From IMG/VR virus record IMGVR_UViG_3300022542_000213, positions 1 to 51,323 of that record: a DNA stretch of 51,323 nt; one strand, 5' to 3'. Under the pieces are notes generated by a model. It ran no database searches and was not told the origin of the DNA. It worked only from the letters and a program-made list of their open reading frames with translations. This DNA is from a virus (lineage: Duplodnaviria; Caudoviricetes). The translations under genes were made by a program, and so were the position numbers. Shown here in pieces: positions 20,685 through 38,657 of the stretch (positions are counted from its first letter, which is position 1; each line of letters starts with the position of its first letter).

Positions 20685-20758
20685 TTATTCTCTTTTTCTG
20701 TATTTTATCGGTCTCTAACAGACTTAATTGGGGGCGTTTATATCCCCCTATAAATCTA

Positions 20759-20947: not shown

Positions 20948-20948
20948 T

Positions 20949-21713: not shown

Positions 21714-21737
21714 ATCTTTATATTAGTTAGTTATTAA

Positions 21738-22187: not shown

Positions 22188-22193
22188 AACCCT

Positions 22194-22222
22194 ATGATAT
22201 CATAACTAGAGTTATTTGTCAA
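22194..22222 (-). promoter_or_regulatory. Sigma70-type promoter, leaderless start of the EndoVII gene
   Basis: TTGACA-17 nt-(TG.)TATCAT-6 nt-ATG. Confidence 0.75.
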
Positions 22223-22234
22223 ACTATATACTAT

Positions 22235-22357
22235 AAATTTCGTAATTATACCCCACAACCATATTGCTGTGGGGTTGACTTCTATGTCAAAAATTTCTTA
22301 CTGAATATTACGTAACAGGATATTTTATAACTTCATCCCTCCTCTAAACTATTCAGT
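22235..22357 (-). ncRNA. Candidate structured small RNA/leader (~125 nt)
   Basis: ACUGAAUA/UAUUCAGU domain, UUGAC/GUCAA hairpin, ACCCCACAGC/GUUGUGGGGU hairpin; promoter TTGACT-17-TAGTAT at 22365-22393. Confidence 0.5.
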
Positions 22358-22422
22358 GTCTTATATACTATACTATTGTGTTTCAAAAGTCAAGTGTATA
22401 AGTAGTTGTGATACAATCTATC

Positions 22423-23316
22423 TTAAAAGTCAACCCCATCCCCACAGTCTACCGTTGCTATCTTATGTTTCTGGTACATCCTAATCACAGAAGGTCTATC
22501 ATCATAAGCTATTCTAACGTCATCAACTCCAAACATTTTTAACATATCCTCTTTAACCTCTGTATCAGGTCTAAAGTCATTTTTAGCCCTCATAAACATA
22601 CATTTAGCCCTATCTAGTATTTCGGGGCAATGTTTGTTAAACCATTTAATTGTTTCTGCCCTATACTTTTCATTACGTCCAGTTACTAAGAATAGATCAT
22701 AACCACTATTATCAAGTATTTCTTCAATTTCATCCCAAACATCCTCTCTGAAAGTATCTAAGTTACATTCAGCAAAAAAGGATTCCCAATCTTTATGTTC
22801 TCCTTGTACATGCTTAATCCTTTCTCCTATATCAGCTAAAGTACCATCAATATCAACTAGCATTACGCCATTCCATGAAATCCACATATGATTCTTTAAA
22901 GCATCTTTCCAAATTACATGATCCCCGACTGGATTATCTCTTTCTCCATCTCTTTTTACACAATCAGTAACTATAACATGTTTAGTTTCTAAAGTATGAA
23001 AATCAGCACCATTTTTTTGGGCTAATTTAAACCATCTCTGCCTATCTACAGGTTTTAAATTATCATTGTCTACAATACAACTAATACCATGACTTAAACA
23101 TTTATCAATTATACTTTCTTGGGAATTTCTTACTTTAAACTCCTTGAAAGAACCCTTTTTATCAAGAAACAAACTTAATCTTAAATCGTCAAGACTTGTT
23201 CTGAAAATACTATTTTTAGATCTCTTGACTAAATCTTTAGCCATTGTGGTTTTACCACTAGCTGTTAAGCCTTTCATCATATATAATTTAGGCATTGTTT
23301 TTCTAATTGCTATCAT
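22423..23316 (-). CDS. pseT: Polynucleotide 5'-kinase/3'-phosphatase (T4 PseT-like)
   Basis: Walker A GLTASGKTT; HAD motifs DIDGT, VTGR, MR...DFRPD, YDDRP. Confidence 0.9.
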   Translation of the reverse strand: MIAIRKTMPKLYMMKGLTASGKTTMAKDLVKRSKNSIFRTSLDDLRLSLFLDKKGSFKEFKVRNSQESIIDKCLSHGISCIVDNDNLKPVDRQRWFKLAQKNGADFHTLETKHVIVTDCVKRDGERDNPVGDHVIWKDALKNHMWISWNGVMLVDIDGTLADIGERIKHVQGEHKDWESFFAECNLDTFREDVWDEIEEILDNSGYDLFLVTGRNEKYRAETIKWFNKHCPEILDRAKCMFMRAKNDFRPDTEVKEDMLKMFGVDDVRIAYDDRPSVIRMYQKHKIATVDCGDGVDF

Positions 23317-23333
23317 TATTATTAAACTATCAA

Positions 23334-23819
23334 TTAAACTTCGTCTTCTGATAAGTTATCCTCATCAACAGGATTATGTATTTCATCTCTTTCACTATTA
23401 TTAAGGTGTGAGCCTATAAATTCATCTCTATCATTTTTATTTATATAAAAATACTCATAAGCTAGTGATATTAGATAAATCTTTTGTGGTACAGGTAAAT
23501 CTTCAAACTCGGTTAAAAGAACCTTAACTACACTTTTAGTGTCTCCTAAATCACCAAAATATAAACCATAAGATTTACCATCTTTCACTAACTCTACAGT
23601 AGTCTCATTTAACTTAATTTTATAGGGGTTAGGTACTTTTTCTTCTTCTGGTACTTCAATAGTATCACCAGTACTAAAACCATACTCTGCAGTGGGCATA
23701 TCCCATCTTATATAATCACCATTCCCTCCAGTTCTTGTAGGTACTGGTAGTTGTGATCTCATTAATGATTCTCTTGCAGTTTCTCTTAATATGTGTCTCT
23801 CTCTTGGTGTTAGTGGCAT
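23334..23819 (-). CDS. Hypothetical protein
   Basis: 161-aa ORF with acidic tail. Confidence 0.6.
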   Translation of the reverse strand: MPLTPRERHILRETARESLMRSQLPVPTRTGGNGDYIRWDMPTAEYGFSTGDTIEVPEEEKVPNPYKIKLNETTVELVKDGKSYGLYFGDLGDTKSVVKVLLTEFEDLPVPQKIYLISLAYEYFYINKNDRDEFIGSHLNNSERDEIHNPVDEDNLSEDEV

Positions 23820-23820
23820 A

Positions 23821-24195
23821 TTAGTTATTTATTAAATTATTAACAATAGTCTTAATTCCATCTTCGTTATCAAAATCAACTTTTAATACATTTTGTATAT
23901 AAACTCTCATTGAATTTATTAACTCGTTATTAAATAGGAATATCCCATGTGTCTTACCCTCTAACCACTTTTTTGCAGAATCATCATCACCATTAGCACC
24001 TTTCCATTCAAAGAATACTATCAGTAAATAAGCTATCTGATATTCTGTATAATCATCAATAAGATCTTTAAACATTTTACCTGTTAAGCCGTAATTAATA
24101 CGTGGCTTAATTCCATACTTATTATTATATAGAATAGAGTAAATTGTACTCAATCTTATTACGTAATTATTCCCTAAGTTTTTTGGTAACTCCAT
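23821..24195 (-). CDS. Hypothetical helical protein
   Basis: Start moved to ATG 24195 (MELPKN) because the upstream part of the track ORF is the tRNA. Confidence 0.65.
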   Translation of the reverse strand: MELPKNLGNNYVIRLSTIYSILYNNKYGIKPRINYGLTGKMFKDLIDDYTEYQIAYLLIVFFEWKGANGDDDSAKKWLEGKTHGIFLFNNELINSMRVYIQNVLKVDFDNEDGIKTIVNNLINN

Positions 24196-24196
24196 G

Positions 24197-24267
24197 CTCT
24201 CTCTGAAGGAATCGAACCTTCGTATTTCGGGCTTCAACCGAACGCTTTACCACTAAGCTAAAAGAGA
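24197..24267 (-). tRNA. tRNA with GAA anticodon (Phe), atypical, no encoded CCA
   Basis: Cloverleaf: TCTCTTT/AGAGAGA acceptor, GCTT/AAGC D-stem with GG, TTCGG-TTGAAGC-CCGAA anticodon arm, GAAGG-TTCGATT-CCTTC T-arm. Confidence 0.9.
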
Positions 24268-24300
24268 ATGTGCTATTTTCGTACGCACCTAATATATTCT

Positions 24301-24582
24301 TTTGAGTTAAGTTCTGTTATATTGGACTATAACAGAAAGAATAAGGCGTAAGGATTAAGATACTTTGTTGCTTGATATGATATACTCTTTTCACGGAGTA
24401 ATGTTTCAGTGATCTGTATTCCGTATCTATAGTTTTTAAATAGCTAACCCCCAGAATATCCTAACCGATTATGAATTGCGGTTGGACGACCCAACGTTAA
24501 TTCACAATTAGACTTTAAGTTAGGGTAATCCCAGCTTGATTTATAAAAAGATTATGTGGCGTTGTTTGGTAATTAACTCAAA
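24301..24582 (-). ncRNA. Candidate large structured RNA (~280 nt) upstream of the tRNA
   Basis: 10-bp perfect closing stem TTTGAGTTAA/TTAACTCAAA with several nested helices; no ORF. Confidence 0.65.
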
Positions 24583-24615
24583 TCTTGCCTAAGCAATGCC
24601 ATTAAGATGCTCCAT

Positions 24616-25836
24616 TTACGCACCACCACCTAATCTAATTTGTAATTGTTTTAGTTCTTGTTCAAATTCTAGTAATTCTTCAATAAACTCCTCTTGATTA
24701 TCCTCCATTTCATCAAGAATTGCTTCGTTGTAAACTTGTGAAGTATTTCCAGCTTCTACAAAATCTTGACAAACCTTAATATCTTTATCAAGATCATTCA
24801 CGAGTTCTCCAATTCTTGCAATTTCATCCTCTACATATTCATATCTTTCATTTTCTTCGTCAAACATACTGTTAGCCATTTCACCAAAATCTTTCTCTAC
24901 ACCACTTTCTAATAGATTTTGAGCATAACCATCATTAGACATACCATTTATGAAATCATTATCAACATGAATCATAGTCATCTTTCCAGTTTCAGCATCT
25001 ACCTCGTAAGGATCTTCATAAGGTCTTCTAGTATCAAATCCAGCAGGTCTCTTATATTCACTTCCACTATTCCAGCTATTGTAAGTAGGTTTATAATAGT
25101 TACCAATATCTACATTATTTTCTGTAGTCTTACCTGTTTTGTAATCAATAGTAACTAATACATCTTCTTCAACTGACTGTCCGTTTCCAACTGATTTAAG
25201 AACAAACATACCTTTATTTTCCTCTAAAATAAGTGGGTTTCTTGAATTGTGTCCGTAGTGGATATTCTTAATAGAACCTCTCTTATCAGTTTCAAAACAA
25301 ATAAATGCTATTGACCCTTTGGATTTAAAGTGTTCTTGCTTACCTTCAAGATATAGGGCGAGATCTATTGAAAATGATTCACTATCATTGTAAAAGTCTT
25401 CTTCGGTAGTAACTTTAGTCTTACCTCCAATCCTATATAACTCTTGCTTTTGCATCTCTGTAGTGTACTTGATACCTAATTCTTCGTGTTCCTTCTTTAA
25501 ATCATCAGAGTTACTAATAATACCATTGTGGATCACATAATAATTACTCTTGAATATCTTATGCTTAACTGTAATAGGATGGTTGACATCCTCAAAGTTA
25601 GGTGTACTTGTTGGTATTCTGTGATGGAAAAGAATCTCATCAGACTTTTCCTGTTTTAAGGCATTAGTAACTTCACTTAATGTCTCAAATCTTTTAACAC
25701 CTCCTATTTTACCATCATAGACTGGTATATATCCAAAACCTTGTACACCTCTACTTTTCTGTTTTTGGAATCTCTTAATAACAGTCTTGTTAGCACGAGA
25801 TTTATTATTTCTTTTAGTGTATATAATTCCACACAT
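24616..25836 (-). CDS. Class II (Ntn) glutamine amidotransferase with acidic coiled-coil tail
   Basis: MCGII, SRG, HHRIPT, NHP, HNGII, DSE. Confidence 0.9.
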   Translation of the reverse strand: MCGIIYTKRNNKSRANKTVIKRFQKQKSRGVQGFGYIPVYDGKIGGVKRFETLSEVTNALKQEKSDEILFHHRIPTSTPNFEDVNHPITVKHKIFKSNYYVIHNGIISNSDDLKKEHEELGIKYTTEMQKQELYRIGGKTKVTTEEDFYNDSESFSIDLALYLEGKQEHFKSKGSIAFICFETDKRGSIKNIHYGHNSRNPLILEENKGMFVLKSVGNGQSVEEDVLVTIDYKTGKTTENNVDIGNYYKPTYNSWNSGSEYKRPAGFDTRRPYEDPYEVDAETGKMTMIHVDNDFINGMSNDGYAQNLLESGVEKDFGEMANSMFDEENERYEYVEDEIARIGELVNDLDKDIKVCQDFVEAGNTSQVYNEAILDEMEDNQEEFIEELLEFEQELKQLQIRLGGGA

Positions 25837-25841
25837 TACTG

Positions 25842-27428
25842 TTATTTTTTGTTTTTATCTGATAATGTTAAACGTTCAATTCTCTCTCTGTAGAAAACTT
25901 CGGTATCTTTAGGTAGTTTCAGTATGCTAAAGAAAGCATCAATTTTATCCTCTAGTAAATAAATATCACTCATTTTCTTCATTTGGGCGAAAGTTATTTT
26001 ACCATCAGACACTTTGTCTAGTATAGCTTGGTGTAACTTAACCCAATAAAGAATTTTCTTTGCGTTTAGAGTACCAGCATGTAATCTGATCTCTACAGTA
26101 TGTTGCTTATTACTGTTAAACAATGGGTGTAAATTAAAGTGATAATAACGACTACTTACGTACCTATTATTTTTAATTGAATTTAACTTGTTACTGCTTG
26201 TAGCCTTGTACCAATATTTCTCAATATCAGAAGGATCAGAGAAATGGTTAAGGTCGTAAATTCCGAAGGCATTTTTCAATTTTAGACAATATCCATTATT
26301 TTCCCTTCGGCTTTTAGGTTGTGTAGCAAACAAAACATCCTCAAAAGTTAGATAGAAAGCAAACAATGTTGATAACTTCTTTGTACTATCTCCACCTTGA
26401 AGAAGAACTTTATCTGTAGATTTTGGTTTATATTGTTTAGTAAAGTCTCCGTTATCATCTGCTCCAACATATCCATTTATTCTACATACAGAATCTTTAT
26501 GCTCTATAATTATATGATTAAATATCTTTAGACGAGAAGTTTTTTGTTGTATTAGAGTTACAAGTCTATCAATACCATTATAATCATTAACATAATTGTT
26601 ATACAGAGATGTTGGTATAACAATAGGTGTTATATCAGACTTTTTAATATGGGCAATTATCTTTGCCTTCTCTGAAAAGTTGACAACTTTAAGATTCTCT
26701 GGTAAGAAATCTTTACCTCCTAAGTGTACATGTATTCCAGTAGTTTTATTGGTATAGTTACCATATTTTTGTAGTGTTTTACATGTCTCTCTAAGGACAT
26801 CCTCCCCTTTCTTACCTTTAAGTACAGGTGTAACTACCTCTAACCCCTCGTTTCTTTCCATAGAAGAATCTTTACGTCCATCAGGGTGTATAGATCCATC
26901 ACCTGTTAGCCCCATTTCATCAGCTAATTCTTGACTAAGCCCATTGGCTCTACCAACACACTCTATCTCTACACCAAAAGTCCTTTCAGAAGTGATAATC
27001 TTACCTTTGTCTTTACTTTGATACTTTTTAGAAGTAGCATTAAAACTCCTTCTTTGAAAATTACCTTCACCATCACCTCTTAAACAGTTAAGACATATAC
27101 CACTCCTATATTCAGATACATGTTGACTACAATGTGAACATCTAATACAATCATTTCTGTCATAACAATCTTGACAATAATCATCACCATTTCGCATCCT
27201 AGTGGCATTATCCTGATGGTATATATCGCCACAATCATCACAATAAACGTAATTATTCATACACTCACTTTCACACATCATACCCTCTGATGTTCCTTCA
27301 CAGTCATCATATTTTCCACAACCTTCACATTCTTGAAAAGAGGTATTATCAAGACATACTTTACACATGTCTCCTTCTACTGTATCGTACATTACACCCT
27401 CATCTTTTTCACAATTTATACAACTCAT
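25842..27428 (-). CDS. Amidoligase (COOH-NH2 ligase, Amidoligase_2 family) with N-terminal CxxC repeats
   Basis: TFGVEIE, DGSI, GLEVVTPVL, TTGIHVH, RY..FNL, TVEIRLHAGT. Confidence 0.9.
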   Translation of the reverse strand: MSCINCEKDEGVMYDTVEGDMCKVCLDNTSFQECEGCGKYDDCEGTSEGMMCESECMNNYVYCDDCGDIYHQDNATRMRNGDDYCQDCYDRNDCIRCSHCSQHVSEYRSGICLNCLRGDGEGNFQRRSFNATSKKYQSKDKGKIITSERTFGVEIECVGRANGLSQELADEMGLTGDGSIHPDGRKDSSMERNEGLEVVTPVLKGKKGEDVLRETCKTLQKYGNYTNKTTGIHVHLGGKDFLPENLKVVNFSEKAKIIAHIKKSDITPIVIPTSLYNNYVNDYNGIDRLVTLIQQKTSRLKIFNHIIIEHKDSVCRINGYVGADDNGDFTKQYKPKSTDKVLLQGGDSTKKLSTLFAFYLTFEDVLFATQPKSRRENNGYCLKLKNAFGIYDLNHFSDPSDIEKYWYKATSSNKLNSIKNNRYVSSRYYHFNLHPLFNSNKQHTVEIRLHAGTLNAKKILYWVKLHQAILDKVSDGKITFAQMKKMSDIYLLEDKIDAFFSILKLPKDTEVFYRERIERLTLSDKNKK

Positions 27429-27430
27429 AT

Positions 27431-28150
27431 TTATTCAAAAAAATTAGCTATTAATTTATAATCCTTTAATTCCTCTGGATGCCATTGAATAGCTAACACA
27501 GGAGAACCCCTAAAACTTTTAATGTTAAATGCTTCCACTACTGAATCGTCTACTCCGACCCCGAATCCTGTAGATCCACATATTTTAAAGTTATCATTTC
27601 TTTTGTTAAACTTCTTGACGCTACCCTTTAGAATAACAGACTGATGGTGTATAGAGTTTACAAACATTCTATTATACTTATCTTTATTGTTATACAATAA
27701 TTCTGATATTATGTTTATACCATGTGTTGTAGCATCTCTTTCTGCTTTCAATTCTTTGGGGGCGTTATGTTTCTTAATATCTTGTCTATATTCAAGACTA
27801 TCGGCATTATTCTCATTCATATATTCCCTAAATAAGAGTTGAAATCCTCTACATATCCCAAAAATAGGTTTCTTAACGTCTGTAAATGCTTTTATAACAT
27901 CTCTCTCAAAATCATCTCTATCTTGGTTACAAATATTAGATGCAATATTATTATATCCATAGAAAGTGGGATCAACATCAATACCTCCAGCTAACATTAA
28001 ACCATCACAAGCTTTAGTTATATCTTCATAATCAGAGTTTGGATAAACCAAAACTGGCATCATTCCAGCCCCGAGTACATAATCAACATATACTCTGTTT
28101 ATGTACATCTGTTTTTTATTAAATGGTATTGGTATTGCTATTATTTTCAT
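27431..28150 (-). CDS. Peptidase C26 / PuuD-like gamma-glutamyl hydrolase (class I GATase fold)
   Basis: GGIDVDP..YG, RDDFE, PIFGICRGFQ, VNSIHHQ, QWHPE. Confidence 0.92.
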   Translation of the reverse strand: MKIIAIPIPFNKKQMYINRVYVDYVLGAGMMPVLVYPNSDYEDITKACDGLMLAGGIDVDPTFYGYNNIASNICNQDRDDFERDVIKAFTDVKKPIFGICRGFQLLFREYMNENNADSLEYRQDIKKHNAPKELKAERDATTHGINIISELLYNNKDKYNRMFVNSIHHQSVILKGSVKKFNKRNDNFKICGSTGFGVGVDDSVVEAFNIKSFRGSPVLAIQWHPEELKDYKLIANFFE

Positions 28151-28153
28151 AAG

Positions 28154-28327
28154 CTAAAATTCTATATCTAAATCATCCTCTAAATCCTCAAAAGGATCTG
28201 TACCATTGACAATATTCATATCAATCATAACCTCGTCAACTTTATCCTGTGCTTCACTAACATCCCCATGTTCGTTAGAAAAGTCATTTAAAAGACTCTC
28301 TAGTTGTTTTAATTTTGATAATTCCAT
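28154..28327 (-). CDS. 57-aa highly acidic protein (not in ORF track)
   Basis: MELSKLKQLESLLNDFSNEHGDVSEAQDKVDEVMIDMNIVNGTDPFEDLEDDLDIEF*, first ORF after the promoter. Confidence 0.65.
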   Translation of the reverse strand: MELSKLKQLESLLNDFSNEHGDVSEAQDKVDEVMIDMNIVNGTDPFEDLEDDLDIEF

Positions 28328-28356
28328 GTTTGTTGTATTACTTTATTAATAATTAT

Positions 28357-28401
28357 ATATTATACTATCTAAAATATATGTCAAGTAAATTCTGTGGATA
28401 A
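28357..28401 (-). promoter_or_regulatory. Promoter with perfect DnaA box upstream
   Basis: TTATCCACA-8 nt-TTGACA-16 nt-TAATAT. Confidence 0.65.
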
Positions 28402-28511
28402 GTCCAAATTTAATCAGTTACAGGGAATTTATCTAAGTTTGTCAAGCGACAAACTCGTCTATCTTTGTCAACCCTCCAACTTGATCCTCTCTATCTTATT
28501 ATTATTTTAGT

Positions 28512-28856
28512 TTATAAAGTCTCCAAGTAGGTTTCTATTGAACCTCCTTCTTGTAGGTGTGGCATTAAGCCGTTCATTTTCTTTTTCCAACCTTGAATAA
28601 TACATTCTTTACAATTTCCTGTATGAGCGAAGCCTTGTTGAAATTTAAAAGAACATTCTTCTACCCATTTTTCTGTTTTTCCAACTGCTTCCCAAGAGTT
28701 TTTGTCTAGGAGGATTGTTTCTATTGGAGTTGTTAATTCGTGCATTCCATTTCTACTAAGAGTTACATGTTGAGATTTCTCACTGTAATATTCCAATTTA
28801 ATTCCTTTTCTCCACCCCCCCTCTATTGCTTTTTCAATATATTCTTTTGGTTTCAT
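28512..28856 (-). CDS. Hypothetical protein
   Basis: 114-aa ORF (IEKAIEGGW...ILLD...WEAVGK). Confidence 0.65.
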   Translation of the reverse strand: MKPKEYIEKAIEGGWRKGIKLEYYSEKSQHVTLSRNGMHELTTPIETILLDKNSWEAVGKTEKWVEECSFKFQQGFAHTGNCKECIIQGWKKKMNGLMPHLQEGGSIETYLETL

Positions 28857-28857
28857 G

Positions 28858-29133
28858 TTATTTGTTTTTTATTTTGGTTATTAAATCGTATAACGCTGTA
28901 TTGTAGATACTTCTCCATTCATCATTTTTCTTGACAGACCCTAAAAGTTTTCTTGTCATTCCTTCAGCCATCTCAACTATTTCCTCCCTCTCTTTATCTT
29001 TGACTTTTTGGAGGGAGGTTTTAATTTGTTTACGATGACAAGTACACCAAATCCTTTTGCCATTTTCACATTGGCAAACTTTACAACATTCCATCTTCAT
29101 TAGCTCCTCAACTATTTTATCTATTGTGTTCAT
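28858..29133 (-). CDS. Hypothetical protein
   Basis: 91-aa ORF, Cys cluster and YNTAL.D C-terminal motif. Confidence 0.6.
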   Translation of the reverse strand: MNTIDKIVEELMKMECCKVCQCENGKRIWCTCHRKQIKTSLQKVKDKEREEIVEMAEGMTRKLLGSVKKNDEWRSIYNTALYDLITKIKNK

Positions 29134-29164
29134 AGTGTTTTATTATTTATAATTTAGTTATAAC

Positions 29165-29188
29165 AAAAGGGGATGTTCAGTCCCCTTT
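29165..29188 (-). terminator. Intrinsic terminator of the microprotein operon
   Basis: AAAGGGGA-ctgaaca-TCCCCTTTT. Confidence 0.7.
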
Positions 29189-29198
29189 GATTTATAAT

Positions 29199-29396
29199 TC
29201 AACTTTTTTTCCTCCCTCTTGCTTTTTCAAGACAATAATTACAGAGTCCATGAGAAACAAGTAAAAGTTTGTTTGTGCGAATTTTACACTTTTGCCAGAA
29301 AGGTATATCACAAAGATCTCTAAAACAAGTTCTTTGAAAACCATCAGGCTCTGTGCAACCGAGTAACTTACCACAAAGACACTTTCTAAGTAGCAT
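29199..29396 (-). CDS. Cys-rich microprotein with SHGLCNYC motif
   Basis: AGGAGG SD, TAATG overlap with the upstream gene, 8 Cys. Confidence 0.7.
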   Translation of the reverse strand: MLLRKCLCGKLLGCTEPDGFQRTCFRDLCDIPFWQKCKIRTNKLLLVSHGLCNYCLEKARGRKKS

Positions 29397-29578
29397 TAGT
29401 TTACCCTCCTCTCAGACATTTCTATTTCTCTGAGATAAGTTTTAAAACATTCCACAGCATCTGGGCTTGTTGAGAATTTGATAAGAAAGTTCAAACAAAT
29501 CTTTGCTCCCTCTAAATCTTTCCCAAATAAATCAAAACCCATAACCAAACTTAATCCTTCTTGATAATGAATCTGCAT
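29396..29578 (-). CDS. 60-aa microprotein
   Basis: AGGAG SD 8 nt before ATG, coupled to neighbours. Confidence 0.65.
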   Translation of the reverse strand: MQIHYQEGLSLVMGFDLFGKDLEGAKICLNFLIKFSTSPDAVECFKTYLREIEMSERRVN

Positions 29579-29579
29579 T

Positions 29580-29726
29580 TTATCTACTCCTTTTTCTGAT
29601 AGGCTTTTTCCTTCTCCTTGTTTTAAGGTTAGGACAGCCTTGTTTAGAGCAATACCTCCTTATCTTTTGCATTGATGGTTTTTTACCACGAACACAATAA
29701 TAGAATAAACTCCTTTTAATTTCCAT
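29580..29726 (-). CDS. 48-aa basic Cys-containing microprotein
   Basis: GGAGGTG SD before ATG 29726 (MEIKRSLFYYC...). Confidence 0.65.
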   Translation of the reverse strand: MEIKRSLFYYCVRGKKPSMQKIRRYCSKQGCPNLKTRRRKKPIRKRSR

Positions 29727-29901
29727 TAGACACCTCCAAAAAACAGCAGAAACAATAAAAAGGATAGGCTTTTTGAGTTTCTTTTCTTTCACAAAGTTTA
29801 TTACAGTCGTCATCACAGAATTGAATCAATCCCATAATTTGACAACCATATCTTATCTTACATTTAATACAATGTTTGATATGATCTCCTTGCTTTCTCA
29901 T
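29716..29901 (-). CDS. Cys-rich microprotein (61 aa)
   Basis: AGGAGGT SD, 9 Cys, boxA-like TGTTCTTTAA upstream. Confidence 0.7.
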   Translation of the reverse strand: MRKQGDHIKHCIKCKIRYGCQIMGLIQFCDDDCNKLCERKETQKAYPFYCFCCFLEVSNGN

Positions 29902-29952
29902 TAAGACCTCCTATATAGTTGAATTATTAAAGAACATTCTTGCTTAATATTA

Positions 29953-30185
29953 AAAACAAGATATAATGGGTTCTAGTACAAGAATTGTTAAAGCAATTAC
30001 TGACTGACTACCAGAGCATCTAGTTACCACAACTGGTTTGCTAGAAGGTGTTTTTGAGTAGAGATAAGTACCTCACGCTGATTGTTATAGTCAACTGACA
30101 TCAATCTTGTTTCTCTTTCCCATCACTCTTGACAAACGGATCATAGACTTTGACCATAGTACCGATGCCCACTATATCTTATTTT
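29953..30185 (-). ncRNA. Candidate structured RNA/leader (~235 nt)
   Basis: 18-bp closing stem AAAAUAAGAUAUAGUGGG/CCCAUUAUAUCUUGUUUU with G-U pairs on the minus strand; several internal hairpins. Confidence 0.65.
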
Positions 30186-30266
30186 CAAATGACTTTTTAC
30201 TAATAAACTTGTCGGAGGGTATTTACATCAAAGTAACGTACCCTCAAACAAATCTACTATACCCCT

Positions 30267-30305
30267 ATATTAATCTATTGTATTACAGTTGTCAAGTGTT
30301 GATAA
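30267..30305 (-). promoter_or_regulatory. Promoter with adjacent DnaA-box variant
   Basis: TTATCAACA-1 nt-TTGACA-17 nt-TAATAT. Confidence 0.65.
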
Positions 30306-30326
30306 CCCCCATAACATAGATATAGA

Positions 30327-30438
30327 AAAAGAGCAACCCCCGACCATGATTGCCCCTTTTCCCAATGGTAAACCTTGAGTTCCCCATTCCTTTAAATTAT
30401 TAGTATGTATATATTATATTATTTATATTTAAAGTCAA
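30327..30438 (-). ncRNA. Candidate ~80-nt sRNA with own promoter and terminator
   Basis: TTGACT-16-TAATAT (30411-30438), hairpin AAUGGGGAAC/GUUUACCAUU, terminator GGGGCAAUC/GGUUGCUCUUUUU. Confidence 0.45.
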
Positions 30439-30569
30439 GTATATATATAGTCATGGTATAAATAATTTGCGTTGTCTAGTTATTGTATAAAAATCCAGTC
30501 TGCGTTCGTTAATATTTAATAAGTATGTTCTCTTATGACTTTGATTTTAAGATATAGTTTTCTTGTAGG

Positions 30570-30653
30570 GGTATCAAACTACCTGTTTGTTATTTCCATT
30601 CGTTACAGGCGATTCTGTGAAAAACTACCCTTAAAATATGGCTCAACATAGCC
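30570..30653 (+). repeat. Composite palindromic site, copy B
   Basis: Same architecture and near-identical spacing as 9488-9572. Confidence 0.7.
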
Positions 30654-30711
30654 CTTTGTAAATGTCTTATTTTCGTATAGACAACAAAAAAAGATTAGTT
30701 TTTTTCACAAC

Positions 30712-30746
30712 AAAAAAACCACACCGTCCGTTAGTGTAGCTTTTGT
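30712..30746 (-). terminator. Intrinsic terminator
   Basis: GCTACAC-loop-GTGTGGT followed by T run. Confidence 0.7.
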
Positions 30747-30792
30747 TTGCACTTTGTCTTTTGACGGTGCTTTATTATTCGCTTTTATTTTC

Positions 30793-30912
30793 TTAAATAC
30801 ATCTTTTACATTTAGTACATCTATATCCCCAAACTTCTTTTTTAGGGTTTCCGAAGAGTTCCATTTCTAAATGTTCGCATTTCTTCTTTTTTTCTTTTTT
30901 CTTCATAAGCAT
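30793..30912 (-). CDS. 39-aa basic zinc-ribbon microprotein
   Basis: MLMKKKEKKKKCEH...YRCTKCKRCI*, TAATG overlap with upstream gene. Confidence 0.55.
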   Translation of the reverse strand: MLMKKKEKKKKCEHLEMELFGNPKKEVWGYRCTKCKRCI

Positions 30913-31199
30913 TAGTTTAGATTAGCAAGTTCATACTTGCCACTATTAATCTTCTTTTGTGTTTCCTTTTTGTCTTCTCCTAAAAATATATTTCTATATT
31001 TACCAGTAGTAGTAGAATAATCCCATTTATTTTCATCTAGTATTATTGCTTCGGGGTATCCGTCAAGATCATTTTCAATTATGGCAATTATACTATCATA
31101 ACTTTGAAAGTATGTTGTATCACCAACTTTAATAATAAACTGATTGACTACTTCTTTACCACTAGGGCTAGTCATATTCATAACTTTTACTTTTAACAT
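30912..31199 (-). CDS. Conserved-looking phage early protein of unknown function
   Basis: NQFII...FQSYDSIIA...WDYSTTTGKYRNIFLG pattern familiar from phage early proteins. Confidence 0.7.
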   Translation of the reverse strand: MLKVKVMNMTSPSGKEVVNQFIIKVGDTTYFQSYDSIIAIIENDLDGYPEAIILDENKWDYSTTTGKYRNIFLGEDKKETQKKINSGKYELANLN

Positions 31200-31257
31200 A
31201 ATATTTAATTATTTAATTTTCAATGTACGGACTAAACAATCGCTTGCTTATACTCTT

Positions 31258-31346
31258 ATTATAGTATACAATGGTTCTATTTCAATGAATATTGGGGATA
31301 AGTTATCAACAGTTATGCTTGACAATATTATTTGACATTGTATTAT
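31258..31346. promoter_or_regulatory. Divergent promoters centred on back-to-back DnaA-box variants
   Basis: Minus: TTATCCCCA-7-TTGAAA-16-TATAAT; plus: TTATCAACA-7-TTGACA-16-TATTAT. Confidence 0.65.
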
Positions 31347-31371
31347 TTATATGTTGTGGCGATATTTTCTA

Positions 31372-31400
31372 TTGACAAATGATATAGAATTTGCTATACT
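31372..31400 (+). promoter_or_regulatory. Near-consensus sigma70 promoter
   Basis: TTGACA-17 nt-(TG.)TATACT. Confidence 0.85.
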
Positions 31401-31404
31401 TGTC

Positions 31405-31540
31405 ATATCGTTATTTTTAGCGAGGTTATAGGTTCGCTTCGGTGTTCCAGTAACCTCACTAAAGGTAACATATAAATGGATTATGGTAGTTATCACAGGA
31501 AAAATACTGCACTTTCTACTACAATAGTAGTATTTTTTTT
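31405..31540 (+). ncRNA. Structured leader/sRNA: long UUCG-capped hairpin plus terminator-like hairpin
   Basis: GUUAUUUUUAGCGAGGUUA/UAACCUCACUAAAGGUAAC stem, CGC-UUCG-GUG cap; UACUAC-AAUA-GUAGUA followed by U8. Confidence 0.6.
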
Positions 31541-31557
31541 GATTAAATAATAAATAA

Positions 31558-31836
31558 ATGAAAGTAATAACAACAGTAGAATATTACACAAAATCATCTC
31601 CAACTTGCCAAGAGATAGTTAGAATCTTCCCAGAAGGTACAAGCCCGACAGTTAAGGAGATAGAAGATTTATATATAAAACTATCAAAAACTGAATATAA
31701 GGACAAGGGAAAAAGAGAAAATGGATCTTTAAAATTAAAATCTAATCGTTCAACGAAGAAAAGGAGGGGGAGAAGATTTTACAAGAGATTAAGGAAACTA
31801 GGTTTTTGGGTAGCACCATCTTATCTAAATCTTTAA
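31558..31836 (+). CDS. Small basic protein, only plus-strand gene in the minus arm
   Basis: 92 aa, Arg/Lys-rich C-terminus KKRRGRRFYKRLRKLGF, downstream of a strong promoter. Confidence 0.65.
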   Translation: MKVITTVEYYTKSSPTCQEIVRIFPEGTSPTVKEIEDLYIKLSKTEYKDKGKRENGSLKLKSNRSTKKRRGRRFYKRLRKLGFWVAPSYLNL

Positions 31837-31867
31837 AAGATAAATAGAGGGTATTTAATGAATACCT

Positions 31868-32340
31868 TTTATTTTGTTTTTTAACAAACTCGTAGAAGTT
31901 AAATTATATAGGCGAGTAAAAGAACTATATAAGCAGTAGCAACGGCACAGGGATCGGATAGACTACTGAAAGTATAATAAAATAAGGGTGTGATAAATCA
32001 TGGCGACTTAAAACAGAGAATCGGAGGAAGAAACACTAACCTTTCCTTATAGAAGTATAAGGATATAATAGGGTCTATTTAATATTTATAGTTATACTTA
32101 AAATTAAGTTACTTACTTATATATAATAGTGGTATAGTATTAATAGTACTAGTGTATTATTATGTAAGAAGACAACACTAGGCTAGGGATGGATATACCA
32201 CTTATAAAAGTAAACCTAATACTAGAATTATAAACCATGGTAAAGCTACCAATAACTCTATTATCCTATCTTCTTTCCTCGATCTATTCATATTATTTAA
32301 AACTTTCTGTTAAGTACAACGAGGTACTAACAAGAATAAA
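31868..32340 (+). ncRNA. Candidate large structured RNA (~470 nt)
   Basis: Five perfectly nested long-range helices plus closing helices and local hairpins; G-U pairs favour + strand; no ORF. Confidence 0.7.
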
Positions 32341-32344
32341 GCAT

Positions 32345-32620
32345 TTATTTTAATTCTGTTCCATTAAATTTAAGCCATTTTGGGTTTTTATAAATACTTC
32401 CAATTACTATCATATTAGTAAGATTAAAACAACCACAACGATAATTATTTTCTAATGCTAGAAACCAACAATTAACATCTTTTTCCCAAGTTACAACCAT
32501 TTTAATTAGATGACGAGGGTTTTTAATATTCGGTTCATTGAAAATACATACATCACCCTCACGGATTTCAAACCCCCTACTGTCTTTTTTATTTATTTTA
32601 ACTCCTAATTTCTTCCTCAT
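32345..32620 (-). CDS. YopX-like protein
   Basis: KDSRGFEIREGDV and VIGSIYKNP match YopX C-terminal motifs. Confidence 0.7.
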   Translation of the reverse strand: MRKKLGVKINKKDSRGFEIREGDVCIFNEPNIKNPRHLIKMVVTWEKDVNCWFLALENNYRCGCFNLTNMIVIGSIYKNPKWLKFNGTELK

Positions 32621-32630
32621 TATAATATAT

Positions 32631-32753
32631 TTAACTTAATAATATAGTCAATGTTATAATTAGCATAGATATAAATATATATACCATAAACATTAACCAC
32701 TTTTTAAAAGCATTTATCCACTCTTCCTTTGTAAACCATAGAAATTTATCCAT
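32631..32753 (-). CDS. 40-aa membrane microprotein
   Basis: MDKFLWFTKEEWINAFKKWLMFMVYIFISMLIITLTILLS*. Confidence 0.5.
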   Translation of the reverse strand: MDKFLWFTKEEWINAFKKWLMFMVYIFISMLIITLTILLS

Positions 32754-32823
32754 AATAATTAATTATATAGGATTATCCAAACTATTGCCTAAATAACCCT
32801 AATATTTAACTATCTATACTTAA

Positions 32824-33339
32824 CTATTTAACATTAAATATAACTTTTAAATCTTTCTCACAGTTATCTATTACTTTTTGTGCGTCTGTTTCTGATTTAA
32901 AGTAGAAATTGCTATCATAATTTGACCAATTCCAAGAAACATAATTAAAACTTTCATCACTCTGATCATAATAGATATTAAATTTCTGCTCTGTATTATT
33001 CCAATCTGGCACAAACTCCAAATCATTCTCCCAAATAAACTTCTTTATTCTTTGTAGAGCAGACCGTCTTTTTTGCTCAATTTTTGCTTCTGTATCACTG
33101 AAGAAAACATTACCACCATTTAGCCGAGTTGTATCTGTTATTGAATCTTCCCATAAATCACTACATCTTAAATTCTCATTATCAAGGTAGTAGTATACAT
33201 CATCATAAGACGGTTGAAACGCCCCCTTAATAAATTTACTCTTAAACTCTTTAACTGTTTCTTCTGATAGGGCAACTTTTTTACCCTCTATCATAATGTA
33301 GTTGTTGTCTTTCATAATTAAACTTGTTAAATGTTGCAA
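32824..33339 (-). CDS. Hypothetical phage protein
   Basis: GNVFFS..EA, FVPDW....KFNIYY, YFKSE..A pattern; start probably the internal Met (MKDNN). Confidence 0.65.
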   Translation of the reverse strand: MQHLTSLIMKDNNYIMIEGKKVALSEETVKEFKSKFIKGAFQPSYDDVYYYLDNENLRCSDLWEDSITDTTRLNGGNVFFSDTEAKIEQKRRSALQRIKKFIWENDLEFVPDWNNTEQKFNIYYDQSDESFNYVSWNWSNYDSNFYFKSETDAQKVIDNCEKDLKVIFNVK

Positions 33340-33352
33340 CGACTTTAGTCGT

Positions 33353-33721
33353 TTAAATAAACATTATCTTAATAATAGTTAGTGATAGTGTTAGAATTAC
33401 ACCCCAACAAAAACCACCCCATGCACTTGTTTTTGATCCCTCTAAATAGTAACCGATAGGATCTCCAAAATCATTAACTTTAAAATCAATTATTGGATAG
33501 GTTCTATTTCTAATTCCCATACTGTGAACAGAAGTCAACATCTCTCTATATTTAGTTGATATTTTCTTGTGTTTATTACAAAAATACTCGTGCCTAACAA
33601 AATCACCTTTGAAATCAACAATCTCTATTCTTGTACTAGAACTTTTATCTATAATAGAGCAACAGTCTTGACACTTAATTAAATCTAAATGACCTCTTTC
33701 TTTGTATGATATATTCTCCAT
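33353..33721 (-). CDS. Hypothetical protein with Zn-binding motif and C-terminal TM
   Basis: CQDC...CNKH; hydrophobic C-terminus. Confidence 0.6.
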   Translation of the reverse strand: MENISYKERGHLDLIKCQDCCSIIDKSSSTRIEIVDFKGDFVRHEYFCNKHKKISTKYREMLTSVHSMGIRNRTYPIIDFKVNDFGDPIGYYLEGSKTSAWGGFCWGVILTLSLTIIKIMFI

Positions 33722-33760
33722 GTTTTTATTTATATTTATCTTTAATAATCTCTCCGACCT

Positions 33761-33919
33761 TTAACGATAATGTTTATAACATTTACAGCAATACAAACCC
33801 GTTTCTTCTTTATTTATTACTAGATGATGTTTACAATAATCAATGTTAGGTATAAAATGGGGGCAATATAAACAAACTCGCCCATTCTTTCTTTCTTTAT
33901 ATATATGGTTACACTTCAT
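33761..33919 (-). CDS. 52-aa tandem zinc-finger microprotein
   Basis: CNH...CLYC and CKH...CCKC repeats. Confidence 0.55.
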   Translation of the reverse strand: MKCNHIYKERKNGRVCLYCPHFIPNIDYCKHHLVINKEETGLYCCKCYKHYR

Positions 33920-34073
33920 AGCTAGGTTTTTCTAAATACATGGTAACATTCCCATCTCCTTTACATACAATATGTTTTAAACGATAACCTCTTTTTGAGT
34001 ATTTATCTAAATCTTTTTGGATGTCCTTACGGAAAAAATGCCCTATTACTTTGTATTTATATTTAATCATCAT
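33909..34073 (-). CDS. 54-aa protein (DUF4177-like), leaderless
   Basis: YKYKVI...LDKYSKRGYRL...MYLEK pattern; ATG 6 nt after the -10. Confidence 0.6.
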   Translation of the reverse strand: MMIKYKYKVIGHFFRKDIQKDLDKYSKRGYRLKHIVCKGDGNVTMYLEKPSYEV

Positions 34074-34079
34074 ACCTAT

Positions 34080-34145
34080 ATATTAACAAACCCCTTGACT
34101 TTGTCAAATCAACAACTGGGGATAACTCTGTTAGTATGTGGATAA
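34080..34145 (-). promoter_or_regulatory. Promoter with two tandem DnaA boxes
   Basis: TTATCCACA-11-TTATCCCCA-9-TTGACA-16-TAATAT. Confidence 0.65.
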
Positions 34146-34182
34146 CAAAAAGGGGCAGAATAATTAAATTAAACCGCCCCTT
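34146..34182 (-). terminator. Intrinsic terminator
   Basis: AAGGGGCG-loop-TGCCCCTTTTT. Confidence 0.6.
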
Positions 34183-34208
34183 AACTTTGTTACCTAAGTA
34201 ACACCCCT

Positions 34209-34391
34209 TTATACAACAACCTCCATATTTAATGTTTGTGTTAAATGCCTATAAAGGCTAGAATAACAATCACTTTGCAGAACTTTATTACCATTGACAA
34301 CTGGTATAGACCTGCTATCAACTGCGACAAACTTCTTTTGATCATTTAAGCCTTTGATTATCTTAACATTCCCTTGATTATTTAATGTCAT
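34209..34391 (-). CDS. 60-aa SD-led hypothetical protein
   Basis: AAGGGGG SD and GTTCTTTAA boxA-like motif upstream. Confidence 0.6.
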   Translation of the reverse strand: MTLNNQGNVKIIKGLNDQKKFVAVDSRSIPVVNGNKVLQSDCYSSLYRHLTQTLNMEVVV

Positions 34392-34501
34392 TGTATTTCC
34401 CCCTTTTAAAGAACTATATAAATTAACCTGTTTAATTTACTCCATGTCGCCCACCTCATTTATCTAGTTACTTCCTAGTTAAGATAAGCGATAGCAATAA
34501 A

Positions 34502-34744
34502 CTATCTAATGTTTGGATCACAATCTGCTATAAACATATTCCAAGCATCTTGACTATATGGGTTACCTTGATAATAATAATCACCTGCAACCTCTACAAT
34601 ACAGTTACTTGTTTCCTCTAACTTATCAATATAATAACTAGATGTTGCAATCTTCCATATTCCAACCCCCATTAAGAATATAATCGCCCCTATACCTAAA
34701 TACATAAATATAAATGTTAGAACCTCCTGTGTTGTTTTTAACAT
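34502..34744 (-). CDS. Small membrane protein
   Basis: N-terminal TM helix, first gene of the minus arm. Confidence 0.6.
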   Translation of the reverse strand: MLKTTQEVLTFIFMYLGIGAIIFLMGVGIWKIATSSYYIDKLEETSNCIVEVAGDYYYQGNPYSQDAWNMFIADCDPNIR

Positions 34745-34776
34745 AACTTTAAATGAACTAAACTTTTAATATCTAT

Positions 34777-34820
34777 ATAATAGCATAAGACTAAATCAAT
34801 GCAATAGCACATGGGGATAA
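34777..34820 (-). promoter_or_regulatory. Promoter with DnaA-box variant
   Basis: TTATCCCCA-7-TTGCAT-16-(TG.)TATTAT. Confidence 0.6.
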
Positions 34821-34899
34821 CTCTTTGGATTATCCAAGAACTAACCCCATAATACAGGTATATTGACCCCTCTAATCATTTAAACACCCTTTAAAAGCT

Positions 34900-35400
34900 A
34901 ATTTCAAGGCTCACAAATCGCCCCAAACCCACTAAAACACCTATATAGAGGATAAAGGCTAATAACTAGCATATAACTAACTGAATACACCGCCCCCAAC
35001 TAACTAACCCTCTATACTACCACTAACTACTACCTATCACTACATACATAAAAAGAATACACTATAAGCCAGTCAATAAGTCCGCCCCCTACCCTAAGCC
35101 CCTACTATACATAGAGTATAAGACTACTATCACATACACACTAGACACTAGCACCACACACGCTTGATATAGCACACACTGTTAATATAGCCCCATGGTA
35201 TTGATATAGTATCTACCACCCTCCCCCCACATAGAACTAAAAGAAAAAGAAGTGTTGTTATTATAGGCTCTATACTGTATATATGTATATGTATAGGCAT
35301 AACTAAAGGGCGGGGGGTACGGAGGACAATGGGAACCGTAATATATATATACCCATCATCAACTATTCACAATATATTATATAACGTAATACAATTATAT
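34900..35400. other. Strand-skewed non-coding region, candidate packaging/terminus or origin
   Basis: C/A-rich plus strand with poly-C runs switching to a G-run at 35308-35317, directly upstream of terminase. Confidence 0.4.
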
Positions 35401-35420
35401 ATATTATACTACTATATGTC

Positions 35421-35449
35421 TTGCAATTATATATATTATATGTTATAAT
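35421..35449 (+). promoter_or_regulatory. Sigma70-type promoter for terminase genes
   Basis: TTGCAA-17-(TG.)TATAAT. Confidence 0.75.
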
Positions 35450-35475
35450 GTAAAAAATAACCCGCGATTAGACAT

Positions 35476-36036
35476 ATGAAACTAAGTATTGAACAAAAGA
35501 TAGGATTATTTAGAATGTTAGCATCTAAGCCTCTATATGAGGTTGGTTTAGAATATGGCTTTGATAAGCACTATAAGGATAGTAAAGCTGTTAAAGGGGC
35601 AGTATATCGAATATATGCTGATATGAAGAATAATCCAGAGAAATATCATATTGAACAAGATATGCTTACTTTAGTAGTAGATGCTGTATCTGCACGTAAG
35701 GTAGCACATAGGAAACAAGATATCTCCTTGAAAGAGAAAACAGATGTACCTATGGAGATAAAGGATGTTATCCTATCTAATAGGGATAAGGCTGCGGCTT
35801 TGGTTAGTAAGAAGTTAGATATGATTGGAAAGAGTAGAAAACAGTTAGAATCAATATCTTTACCACAATTAACTACTGCTATGGCTATTCTCTTTGATAA
35901 AGGACAATTAATACAAGGAGAGGCTACTGAGCATATAGCTCATCTTGCTAAGATAGATGAAGGTATGACTCCACAAGAATTACTCGATGCCGTAGTCGGA
36001 CAACGAGAAAAGACTATTATAGATAAGAATAAGTAA
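35476..36036 (+). CDS. terS: Putative terminase small subunit
   Basis: Helical protein with AILFDKGQLIQGEATE motif, upstream of terL. Confidence 0.6.
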   Translation: MKLSIEQKIGLFRMLASKPLYEVGLEYGFDKHYKDSKAVKGAVYRIYADMKNNPEKYHIEQDMLTLVVDAVSARKVAHRKQDISLKEKTDVPMEIKDVILSNRDKAAALVSKKLDMIGKSRKQLESISLPQLTTAMAILFDKGQLIQGEATEHIAHLAKIDEGMTPQELLDAVVGQREKTIIDKNK

Positions 36037-36420
36037 ATGATACTAAAAATCGACCAAAAAGTTTATCCAGTAGATATAATATTTGCATGTGATGAATCAC
36101 CAACTAGAGTTAATAACTGGTTTAAAAAGAATTATGGTATAAATGAATATGACTTTAGCTTACAAGCTACAGGAGAACATATTTTTCTATCATCTGAAAG
36201 AGAAAATAAGAATCTATCTTTTATACAAATAGGTAGTTTTAAAAGAAATAATGTTAGAGATATGCAAATTCTAGTTCATGAGATATATCATTCTGTTATC
36301 TCTGTTGGAGATCATTTAGGATTTCGTGATGAAATAGGAAGCAGTGAAGCTGGTGCATATCTTTATGATTGTATCTTAGGAACTATACTCGAAAAGTTAT
36401 GGATGAAAAAGAAAAAATAG
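36037..36420 (+). CDS. Hypothetical protein with HExxH metallopeptidase-like motif
   Basis: LVHEIYH...EAGAYL. Confidence 0.65.
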   Translation: MILKIDQKVYPVDIIFACDESPTRVNNWFKKNYGINEYDFSLQATGEHIFLSSERENKNLSFIQIGSFKRNNVRDMQILVHEIYHSVISVGDHLGFRDEIGSSEAGAYLYDCILGTILEKLWMKKKK

Positions 36421-38090: not shown

Positions 38091-38092
38091 AT

Positions 38093-38239
38093 ATGAAATC
38101 ATTTAGAATTACAAAGATTATATATGCAAAAGATATACAAGATGCTTTAAAGAAAGAAGATAAGGCAGAATTGGTCGATATTGAATTAACAGATGAAGTT
38201 GATGAACCAGAAAAAGTAATTGTTGGTTTTGGAAAATAA
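38093..38239 (+). CDS. 48-aa hypothetical protein
   Basis: MKSFRITKIIYAKDIQDALKKED...VGFGK*, TAATG overlap with next gene. Confidence 0.6.
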   Translation: MKSFRITKIIYAKDIQDALKKEDKAELVDIELTDEVDEPEKVIVGFGK

Positions 38240-38625: not shown

Positions 38626-38628
38626 CAG

Positions 38629-38657
38629 TTGCATTATTTTAATATGTGTGCTATAAT
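38629..38657 (+). promoter_or_regulatory. Sigma70-type promoter for portal
   Basis: TTGCAT-17-(TG.)TATAAT. Confidence 0.75.

Follow-up and report, generated by a model that had tools for sequence, protein, structure and literature searches.

Morons are autonomous accessory transcription units that lie between conserved phage genes, a concept that belongs to the lambdoid phages, and small proteins with Cys4 zinc ribbons or zinc fingers form a general class of phage product. Here, we focus on a cassette of four microprotein genes in a virus of the Caudoviricetes (IMG/VR record IMGVR_UViG_3300022542_000213), whose 51,323 bp are the complete record of one tailed phage and are referred to below as the window. 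The cassette lies on the minus strand, from position 29901 to 29199, and each of its four open reading frames (ORFs) is led by a Shine–Dalgarno (SD) sequence. We class it as a variant of the phage morons or early accessory cassettes, distinguished by a switched initiation signal and built of ORFans. Our reading, to which we give a probability of roughly 0.45, is that this early operon is accessory and moron-like, that it came from a pool of genes with SDs and TGA stops, and that it is translated by ordinary SD pairing.

Like a moron, the cassette is compact, ends at a private terminator, may start from a promoter of its own, and consists of small ORFans that are absent from relatives; its signals and stop usage are unlike those of its surroundings, and it occupies a variable region between conserved modules. 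It differs in comprising four coupled genes rather than one, in a GC content (0.33) equal to that of the genome, in being marked by the type of start signal, and in having a promoter that is a candidate only. The likeness to the Cys4 zinc-ribbon class concerns the first and last proteins of the cassette (ORF1, nine cysteines; ORF4, eight) and a nine-cysteine protein of a related phage (locus L034), which are about 60 aa long and carry paired CxxC and CxC knuckles adequate for two tetrahedral Cys4 metal sites; unlike that class, they have no sequence match in Pfam, PHROG, NCBIfam or the PDB, and the structural model obtained for ORF4 has a pLDDT of 41.

T4-type phages carry mobile early-gene cassettes of small genes without assigned function (Arbiol et al. 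2010, PMC2839356). These resemble the present cassette in holding small early genes that differ between close relatives and appear to move as units with their expression signals; they differ in belonging to another phage group, in having flanking repeated promoter and stem–loop elements, none of which was found at the window cassette, and in serving SD-using hosts, hence with no contrast in start signals. A second parallel is rpsU, the gene for ribosomal protein bS21, which in the Flavobacteriia is an SD-bearing exception in an SD-blind organism (McNutt 2023, PMC9976891; Naeem 2026, PMC13000453); in Flavobacterium johnsoniae its translation is confined to ribosomes with a free anti-SD. There, as here, a rare strong-SD gene stands among genes that nearly all lack an SD, and such an SD can carry regulatory meaning. 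The rpsU gene encodes a ribosomal protein behind an extended SD of about −20 kcal/mol, whereas the cassette consists of four ORFans with ordinary SDs: no extended SD of the bS21 type was found in it, its energies of −10.2 to −14.5 kcal/mol falling in what the relevant part of PMC9976891 gives as the ordinary-SD range, with the caveat that the methods differ. A literature search of limited reach returned no description of SD-led cassettes within SD-free phage genomes.

The cassette and its start signals

The first-pass annotation of the window, made from the letters alone, had proposed an island of four SD-led ORFs, and the island is present at the coordinates given, on the minus strand, with ORFs of 61, 48, 60 and 65 aa that are each preceded by an SD. 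Its features are given below in the direction of transcription, with SD duplex energies computed against a 13-nt anti-SD tail.

29963..29991, minus strand: candidate promoter, weakly sigma-70-like (TTAACA-17-CATTAT), some 60 nt ahead of ORF1
29924..29936, minus strand: boxA-like 13-mer, one exact copy
29907..29912, minus strand: SD of ORF1, AGGAGG, 5-nt spacer, duplex −11.4 kcal/mol
29716..29901, minus strand: ORF1, 61 aa, SD-led ATG, annotated frame best of six
29733..29738, minus strand: SD of ORF2, GGAGGT, 5-nt spacer, within the 3′ end of ORF1, duplex −14.5 kcal/mol
29580..29726, minus strand: ORF2, 48 aa, start overlapping the end of ORF1 by 11 nt
29587..29591, minus strand: SD of ORF3, AGGAG, 8-nt spacer, duplex −10.2 kcal/mol
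29396..29578, minus strand: ORF3, 60 aa, start 1 nt past the ORF2 stop
29405..29410, minus strand: SD of ORF4, AGGAGG, 8-nt spacer, duplex −12.5 kcal/mol
29199..29396, minus strand: ORF4, 65 aa, TGA stop, TAATG overlap with ORF3
29166..29188, minus strand: intrinsic terminator hairpin and U-tract, 10 nt past the ORF4 stop

All four ORFs have a canonical SD, defined as at least 5 nt against the CCUCC core placed 4–10 nt before the start. The minus strand of 29165–29960 contains 16 ATGs, and the SD core stands 4–10 nt before four of them, which are the four ORF starts. By codon-frame score the annotated frame is the best of six for ORF1, ORF3 and ORF4; the codon scores of all four ORFs are below those of confirmed genes, and ORF2 is the least certain gene of the four.

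Scoring of anti-SD pairing bore out the SD-poor character ascribed to the rest of the genome. The duplex at the first start is weaker than −5 kcal/mol in 62 of 71 called ORFs and reaches −8 kcal/mol or stronger in only four, ORF3 and ORF4 among them; from this list ORF1 had been removed by an overlap filter, while ORF2 appeared in it as an alternative start. Gene calls were naive longest-ORF calls, and some starts outside the cassette may be wrong. A scan of both strands for an SD core, spacer, start and at least 25 codons gave 24 rows: the four island ORFs, one internal methionine of the downstream 91-aa ORF (28858–29133), and 19 that are doubtful or coincide with longer ORFs, whether inside them, in another frame or on the opposite strand. 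SD-like words are common, with 22 and 15 copies of AGGAGG on the two strands, yet they do not stand ahead of starts. In a table that we built ourselves, leaving out the neighbouring 91-aa ORF, 4/4 cassette ORFs are SD-led against 3/77 others (Fisher test, p = 2e-5). Among 35 confident genes, the A/T-rich start context that had been noted is plain: positions −3 and −6 are each A in 71% of them, while −11 is A and −1 is T in 69% each. The cassette does, as proposed, use translation signals different from those of the remaining genome.

The 81 called ORFs end in TAA (67), TAG (12) or TGA (2), and ORF4 is, as had been suspected, the sole credible gene with a TGA stop, the second being antisense to a real gene. 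Among relatives, TGA stops in ORFs of at least 80 aa range from 1/53 up to 15/36, and a Cellulophaga phage has 8/54. An alternative genetic code was considered and rejected: reading TGA, TAG or TAA as sense fuses no credible genes, and the only effect of TGA as sense is to extend ORF4 to 80 aa. An apparent stop in the terminase of a related locus (L029) was set aside, since it lies upstream of the true start.

Two further small ORFs of the same strand have SD-like leaders, which indicates that SD use may reach slightly past the four cassette ORFs.

28858..29133, minus strand: 91-aa ORF with a Cys-rich N-terminus, the next gene past the cassette terminator, Met12/Met14 preceded by GAGGAG
34209..34391, minus strand: 60-aa ORF standing apart in the early arm, led by an SD-like GGGGG, duplex −10.7 kcal/mol

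The 91-aa ORF has a duplex energy of −8.5 kcal/mol at the internal methionines and +1.3 at Met1, and is a possible fifth SD-led microprotein. The 60-aa ORF has a private terminator (−25.2 kcal/mol, z −6.8).

The terminator said to close the unit is well formed, with a hairpin of −11.9 kcal/mol (z −2.6) followed by a U-tract. In this AT-rich DNA, the 65 promoter-like sites of the region only slightly exceed the 50.9±7.4 of shuffles, and the promoter candidate is therefore no evidence of function. The boxA reading of the element upstream of ORF1 found no support: at two or fewer mismatches the 13-mer has 16 matches against 8.4 expected, and its 8-mer core, TTCTTTAA, occurs 19 times, mostly within genes. 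Nor is a Nus-type element that recurs at operon heads supported across the window, near-matches being about twice as frequent as chance and scattered inside genes. Between the terminator of the upstream operon (30744–30714) and the island lies a minus-strand stretch of 777 nt without a credible ORF (29937–30713). This stretch folds better than shuffles (z −3.5, from 20 shuffles only), and neither an Rfam match at the curated threshold nor similarity among relatives was found for it.

The four proteins and their relatives

The products had been described as four Cys-rich proteins, a label that fits ORF1 (9 Cys: CxxC-x5-C, CxxxCxxxC and CxCC) and ORF4 (8 Cys: CxC, GC and, towards the end, HGLCxxC) and is too strong for ORF2 and ORF3, which have three and two cysteines. 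ORF2 is hyper-basic, with 19 Lys+Arg (40%) and a single Asp+Glu in 48 residues. For ORF3, an AlphaFold2 model from the single sequence is a three-helix bundle with a pLDDT of 76.6, which would be unusual for a random ORF; neither the PDB nor BFVD yielded a fold that matches this model at E ≤ 0.001. From their cysteine patterns, ORF1 and ORF4 are probably metal-binding.

As judged from sequence searches, all four proteins are ORFans. None has a match in Pfam (E ≤ 1), PHROG (E ≤ 0.01) or NCBIfam (E ≤ 1), and a search of PDB sequences returned just a nucleoporin at E 0.07. A word-indexed search of 5.8 billion proteins with ORF1, ORF3 and ORF4 found self-matches only. A hidden Markov model built from ORF4, the L034 protein and ORF1 retrieved, from 1.84 billion representatives, ORF4, ORF1 and one 4960-aa fn3-repeat protein; the last, with 14 matched stretches, was rejected as a relative and taken as repeat noise. 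In the Atlas, the leads for ORF4 (DUF2197-like, Fur-type sites) scored only 0.88 or had a TM below 0.5, and ORF2 is absent and has no usable match. ORF4 has no match in metagenome contigs, and megablast against phage GenBank found no relatives of the island.

The large terminase (TerL) of the phage defines a wider group, with 31 IMG/VR loci at 26–64% identity (29/31 at 44–64%) and five contigs at 37–59% in metagenome-assembled genomes (MAGs). No match to ORF1–4 or the two genes just downstream was found by tblastn in the 31 IMG/VR loci, nor to ORF4 in four complete relatives and the MAG that bears L034, nor to a profile of the family alignment (A2) in five further records; these ten larger records were queried with ORF4 or the A2 profile, and A2 is too variable for pattern scanning. 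The relatives are SD-poor as well: 35/36 loci have no or one SD-flagged ORF of at least 100 aa, and ten complete or large relatives have 1–5 SD-flagged among 32–95 ORFs.

One relative of the cassette proteins was found in L034 (TerL 56%), where a 61-aa, 9-Cys protein is among only three SD-flagged ORFs of 70. Its gene has AAAGGAGGG ahead of the ATG, a TGGTATAAT-type −10 element and its own terminator downstream. The L034 protein aligns with ORF4 at z 5.8, with none of 1000 composition-preserving shuffles as good, and in BLASTP at E 2e-4 over the C-terminal 17 aa, where both share the end HG[IL]CNxCL; its local alignment with ORF1 has z 4.3 (2/1000 shuffles as good) and includes a common CxxC-x5-GC start. 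Across alignment A2 the proteins share the start C-x(1-2)-C-x5-(G)C and the end HG[IL]CxxC. Since the L034 protein aligns with both, ORF1 and ORF4 look like one small family. The three known members all have a strong SD in SD-free phages, while the other Cys-rich micro-ORFs of these genomes are without one. The L034 protein has no match in IMG/VR.

A comparable arrangement occurs in the complete relative G002, where two neighbouring small ORFs, both SD-led, immediately precede the terminase module.

L004 7300-7800 = G002 30715-31118: overlapping SD-led pair of 73 and 66 aa, AAAGGAGGTGA-type leader, terminator hairpin

The second ORF of this pair stops at TGA, and the GC of the segment is 0.45 against 0.39 for the genome; the pair has no sequence relation to ORF1–4. 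Both it and the window island lie in the variable zone between two divergent arms.

Origin, host and rival explanations

In the explanation that we favour, the cassette would be expressed as one short transcript, closed by the intrinsic terminator and bearing four stop–start-coupled microprotein genes. Their products would comprise one small 8–9-Cys family (ORF1 and ORF4), probably metal-binding, a hyper-basic peptide (ORF2) and a three-helix bundle (ORF3), and initiation of the four cistrons would rely on ordinary SD:anti-SD pairing plus translational coupling. The cassette would most likely have entered the lineage from an SD- and TGA-using gene pool, and the SDs were probably retained since the host ribosome is still able to read them. 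An early role in taking over the host or countering its defences is probable for the products, a suggestion drawn only from position, size and composition. What the analysis shows is the anatomy, the contrast in start signals, the ORFan status and the absence from relatives; function of the SDs in the host, metal binding and the biological role are inferred.

We also infer a horizontal origin. Acquisition from another gene pool is made plausible by the SD signals, the private terminator, the absence from relatives, the sole TGA stop and a slightly atypical codon score: the synonymous codon score of the island is 0.19–0.30, against 0.42±0.11 for large genes (Mann–Whitney p = 0.008) and 0.37±0.13 for other small genes (p = 0.045). 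The proposal that the cassette was recently acquired therefore survives as regards acquisition; that it was recent is not established, because the GC of the island equals that of the genome. A mild argument for selection on the SDs, rather than for fossils, is that they have stayed whole although the sequence around them is fully AT-matched and the homologue that shares them has diverged strongly.

Several points weigh against this explanation. In the one Parcubacteria MAG with a TerL-related contig, the 16S tail lacks CCUCC (the Rfam alignment of its 3′ domain stops at 1520 and is followed by UUAAUUU, in the run GGAU–UAAUUU), and if the real host resembles that organism the SDs cannot act by pairing. 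No RNA sequencing run contains the stretch, and translation of the ORFs is predicted from sequence. The promoter candidate matches the consensus at 9/12 positions only, and the promoter type of the host may differ. The annotated frame of ORF2 is not the best of six. Island GC (0.33) is that of the genome, and the codon deviation is modest, inside the range of other small genes. The direct alignment of ORF1 with ORF4 is not significant (z 0.8), so that their kinship is transitive via the L034 protein. The AlphaFold2 model of ORF4 is unusable at pLDDT 41, which leaves cysteine spacing as the sole ground for metal binding, and neither a donor nor a wider family was found among the 1.84 billion representatives or the 5.8-billion-protein collection, which leaves signals and stop usage as the only grounds for horizontal origin.

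In a first alternative, the cassette was imported but its SDs are relics: in an SD-blind or anti-SD-less host the ORFs would be read, if at all, through coupling and A/U-richness. A contig with TerL at 44% identity (L035) lies in a 0.6-Mb Parcubacteria MAG (G006), whose ribosomal-protein operon has no SDs and uses starts such as AAATAAT..ATG, like those of the phage. Together with the 16S tail described above, this is what speaks for the Patescibacteria host that had been suggested, and the anti-SD motif was found in just 48% of Parcubacteria (Tsurumaki et al. 2022, PMC9297842, in the part relied on here). The TGA stop and codon deviation are consistent with foreign origin. Against this, the host link is one co-binned contig of five; the MAG labels of the five are inconsistent (Parcubacteria, an archaeon, Aquaspirillum, another bacterium and Thermomicrobium), the four other MAGs are unrelated, and there are also hints of Bacteroidota; the support for a Patescibacteria host is indirect. 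The ribosomal-protein operon of the other bacterial MAG is SD-using. Assignment of the host by CRISPR spacers gave no evidence for positions 20001–40000 of the window in 401 sampled Patescibacteria genomes: BLAST of these 20 kb returned short AT-rich or tRNA-Phe matches only, and the four best candidate genomes have no CRISPR repeats. Moreover, the SDs of the island, like the one ahead of the L034 homologue, remain whole and well spaced despite an AT-matched composition, in which unselected G-rich motifs should decay. On this evidence we regard relic SDs as rather unlikely. As an observation apart, the 16S gene of the Parcubacteria MAG is interrupted (L055, contig C20 of G006, 154–2475), with the main body at 1074–2475 and the 3′ minor domain at 154–271; the gap of about 800 nt has a weak match to group-II-intron D1–D4 (E 0.0012, below the gathering score).

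Given its peptidoglycan hydrolases, the phage is likely to infect a bacterium. A second alternative places the host among Bacteroidia-like organisms that are SD-blind most of the time; the cassette would then act as a conditional-translation switch, to which mainly ribosomes whose anti-SD is free, such as those without bS21, would respond, and which would tie its products to one ribosome state during infection. In the Bacteroidia the anti-SD is sequestered by bS21, bS18 and bS6 (PMC9976891; PMC13000453), and A at −3 and A at −6 have been described as start context for Flavobacterium, in F. johnsoniae (Baez et al. 2019, PMC6847099). The start context of the phage (A at −3 and −6, A-rich near −11) fits the F. 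johnsoniae determinants as they appear in that source. All four matches of the phage amidoligase are Porphyromonas phages, if weakly (about 30% identity over 21–25% of the query), and Cellulophaga phage phi14:2 is annotated, as here, with ATP-grasp, amidotransferase, amidoligase and GroEL genes, including an ‘S6 glutaminyl transferase’. The phage GroEL is about 30% identical to anything, phages and Patescibacteria alike (134/151 Patescibacteria genomes at 27–35%), and is hence not diagnostic of the host; a GroEL pattern scan of genomes gave no match, and SusD was absent from the four MAGs tested.

This switch is nonetheless improbable. The host has no Bacteroidota identification; the SDs of the island are ordinary (−10 to −14.5 kcal/mol) against about −20 for rpsU in the cited part of PMC9976891, computed with different programs; neither a bS21 match in Pfam nor a ribosome-targeting gene was found among the phage proteins scanned; and a Bacteroidota phage given the same scan over its first 50 kb is SD-poor with no island, having 2/72 SD-flagged, unclustered ORFs. 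Elizabethkingia phage EKP1 was rejected as a comparator, as its GC of 0.51, TGA-rich stops and 6/69 SD-flagged ORFs resemble those of an SD-using phage. A broader form of the idea is that small SD-led cassettes serve as a translational gate in phages of hosts that ignore or lack SD pairing, open only to ribosomes whose anti-SD tail is free (for instance bS21-free 30S subunits), with Zn-binding and basic microproteins made in one ribosome state early in infection; it is prompted by the Cys-rich family, which keeps a strong SD in two diverged SD-free phages (3/3 members), and we hold it to be a speculative and improbable one.

It is more doubtful still that the ORFs are not genes at all, being frames left open by chance in purine-rich DNA that is regulatory or non-coding and whose SD-like motifs are otherwise used or idle. 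The island shares the highest density of AGGAG/GGAGG in the genome, with 12 copies in 772 bp where the mean is 2.7, some of them internal, and to this may be added the ambiguous frame of ORF2, the lower codon scores and the lack of homologues except one weak relative. Yet the four ORFs tile the interval with an SD, spacing and ATG at every junction and nowhere else, they overlap from stop to start as coupled genes typically do, a fold is predicted for ORF3, the opposite strand offers no better ORFs, and the L034 relative of ORF1 and ORF4 is likewise SD-led with its own terminator.

Lastly, it had been suggested that the phage host is a Patescibacterium living as an episymbiont, and that the cell which carries this bacterium supplies the ribosomes for which the cassette is intended. 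This is very improbable: a Patescibacteria host, perhaps without anti-SD, is possible on circumstantial grounds, but none of the results speaks to a passage of phage nucleic acid, mRNA or DNA, into such a second cell or otherwise supports translation there, the host assignment is weak, and simpler explanations account for every observation.

The surrounding genome and significance

The window as a whole has a GC of about 0.33 and a single tRNA-Phe gene. The genes between about 35.3 and 9.5 kb point leftward and the others rightward, which puts the moron-like cassette among the small, promoter-proximal (‘early’) ORFs of the leftward arm. Identified genes are listed here.

36369-38090, plus strand: large terminase
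38686-40725, plus strand: portal
42518-43474, plus strand: major capsid/protease-like protein
47261-49900, plus strand: tail fibre
18165-20684: primase-helicase
11188-13038: divergent GroEL
20949-21713 and 24616-28150, minus strand: RimK-like ATP-grasp and Ntn-type amidotransferase-like protein, Amidoligase_2 protein, peptidase C26

An endolysin-type amidase, an SLT transglycosylase, NinG, an MT-A70 methylase, an endonuclease VII and a polynucleotide kinase-phosphatase were also identified. The ATP-grasp, amidotransferase, amidoligase and peptidase C26 set, together with GroEL, may be a peptide-ligation system targeting host proteins; the relatives of peptidase C26 in metagenome contigs are only 26–29% identical, and the amidoligase has no match in IMG/VR. 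The polynucleotide kinase-phosphatase (22423–23316, minus strand) is close to the lone tRNA-Phe gene (24196–24267, minus strand), a pairing that hints at the repair or replacement of tRNA in response to anticodon nucleases of the host. The sequencing runs that contain the stretch are DNA only, come from one study and are labelled marine sediment metagenome.

How lineages dispense with the SD, as in the Bacteroidia and part of the Parcubacteria, is a live question in translation biology, and in Flavobacterium essentially one strong-SD gene is known, with regulatory meaning. If the cassette is merely a recent import, the finding is ordinary. The small early proteins that it encodes, four ORFans of which two probably bind metal on the evidence of their cysteine patterns, are candidates for screens of host takeover and counter-defence. 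An SD-free phage with one cassette, and one protein family, that keeps its SDs is a natural test case: its SDs may be fossils by which a gene transfer from one translation regime to another can be dated, or else special conditions allow them to be read.

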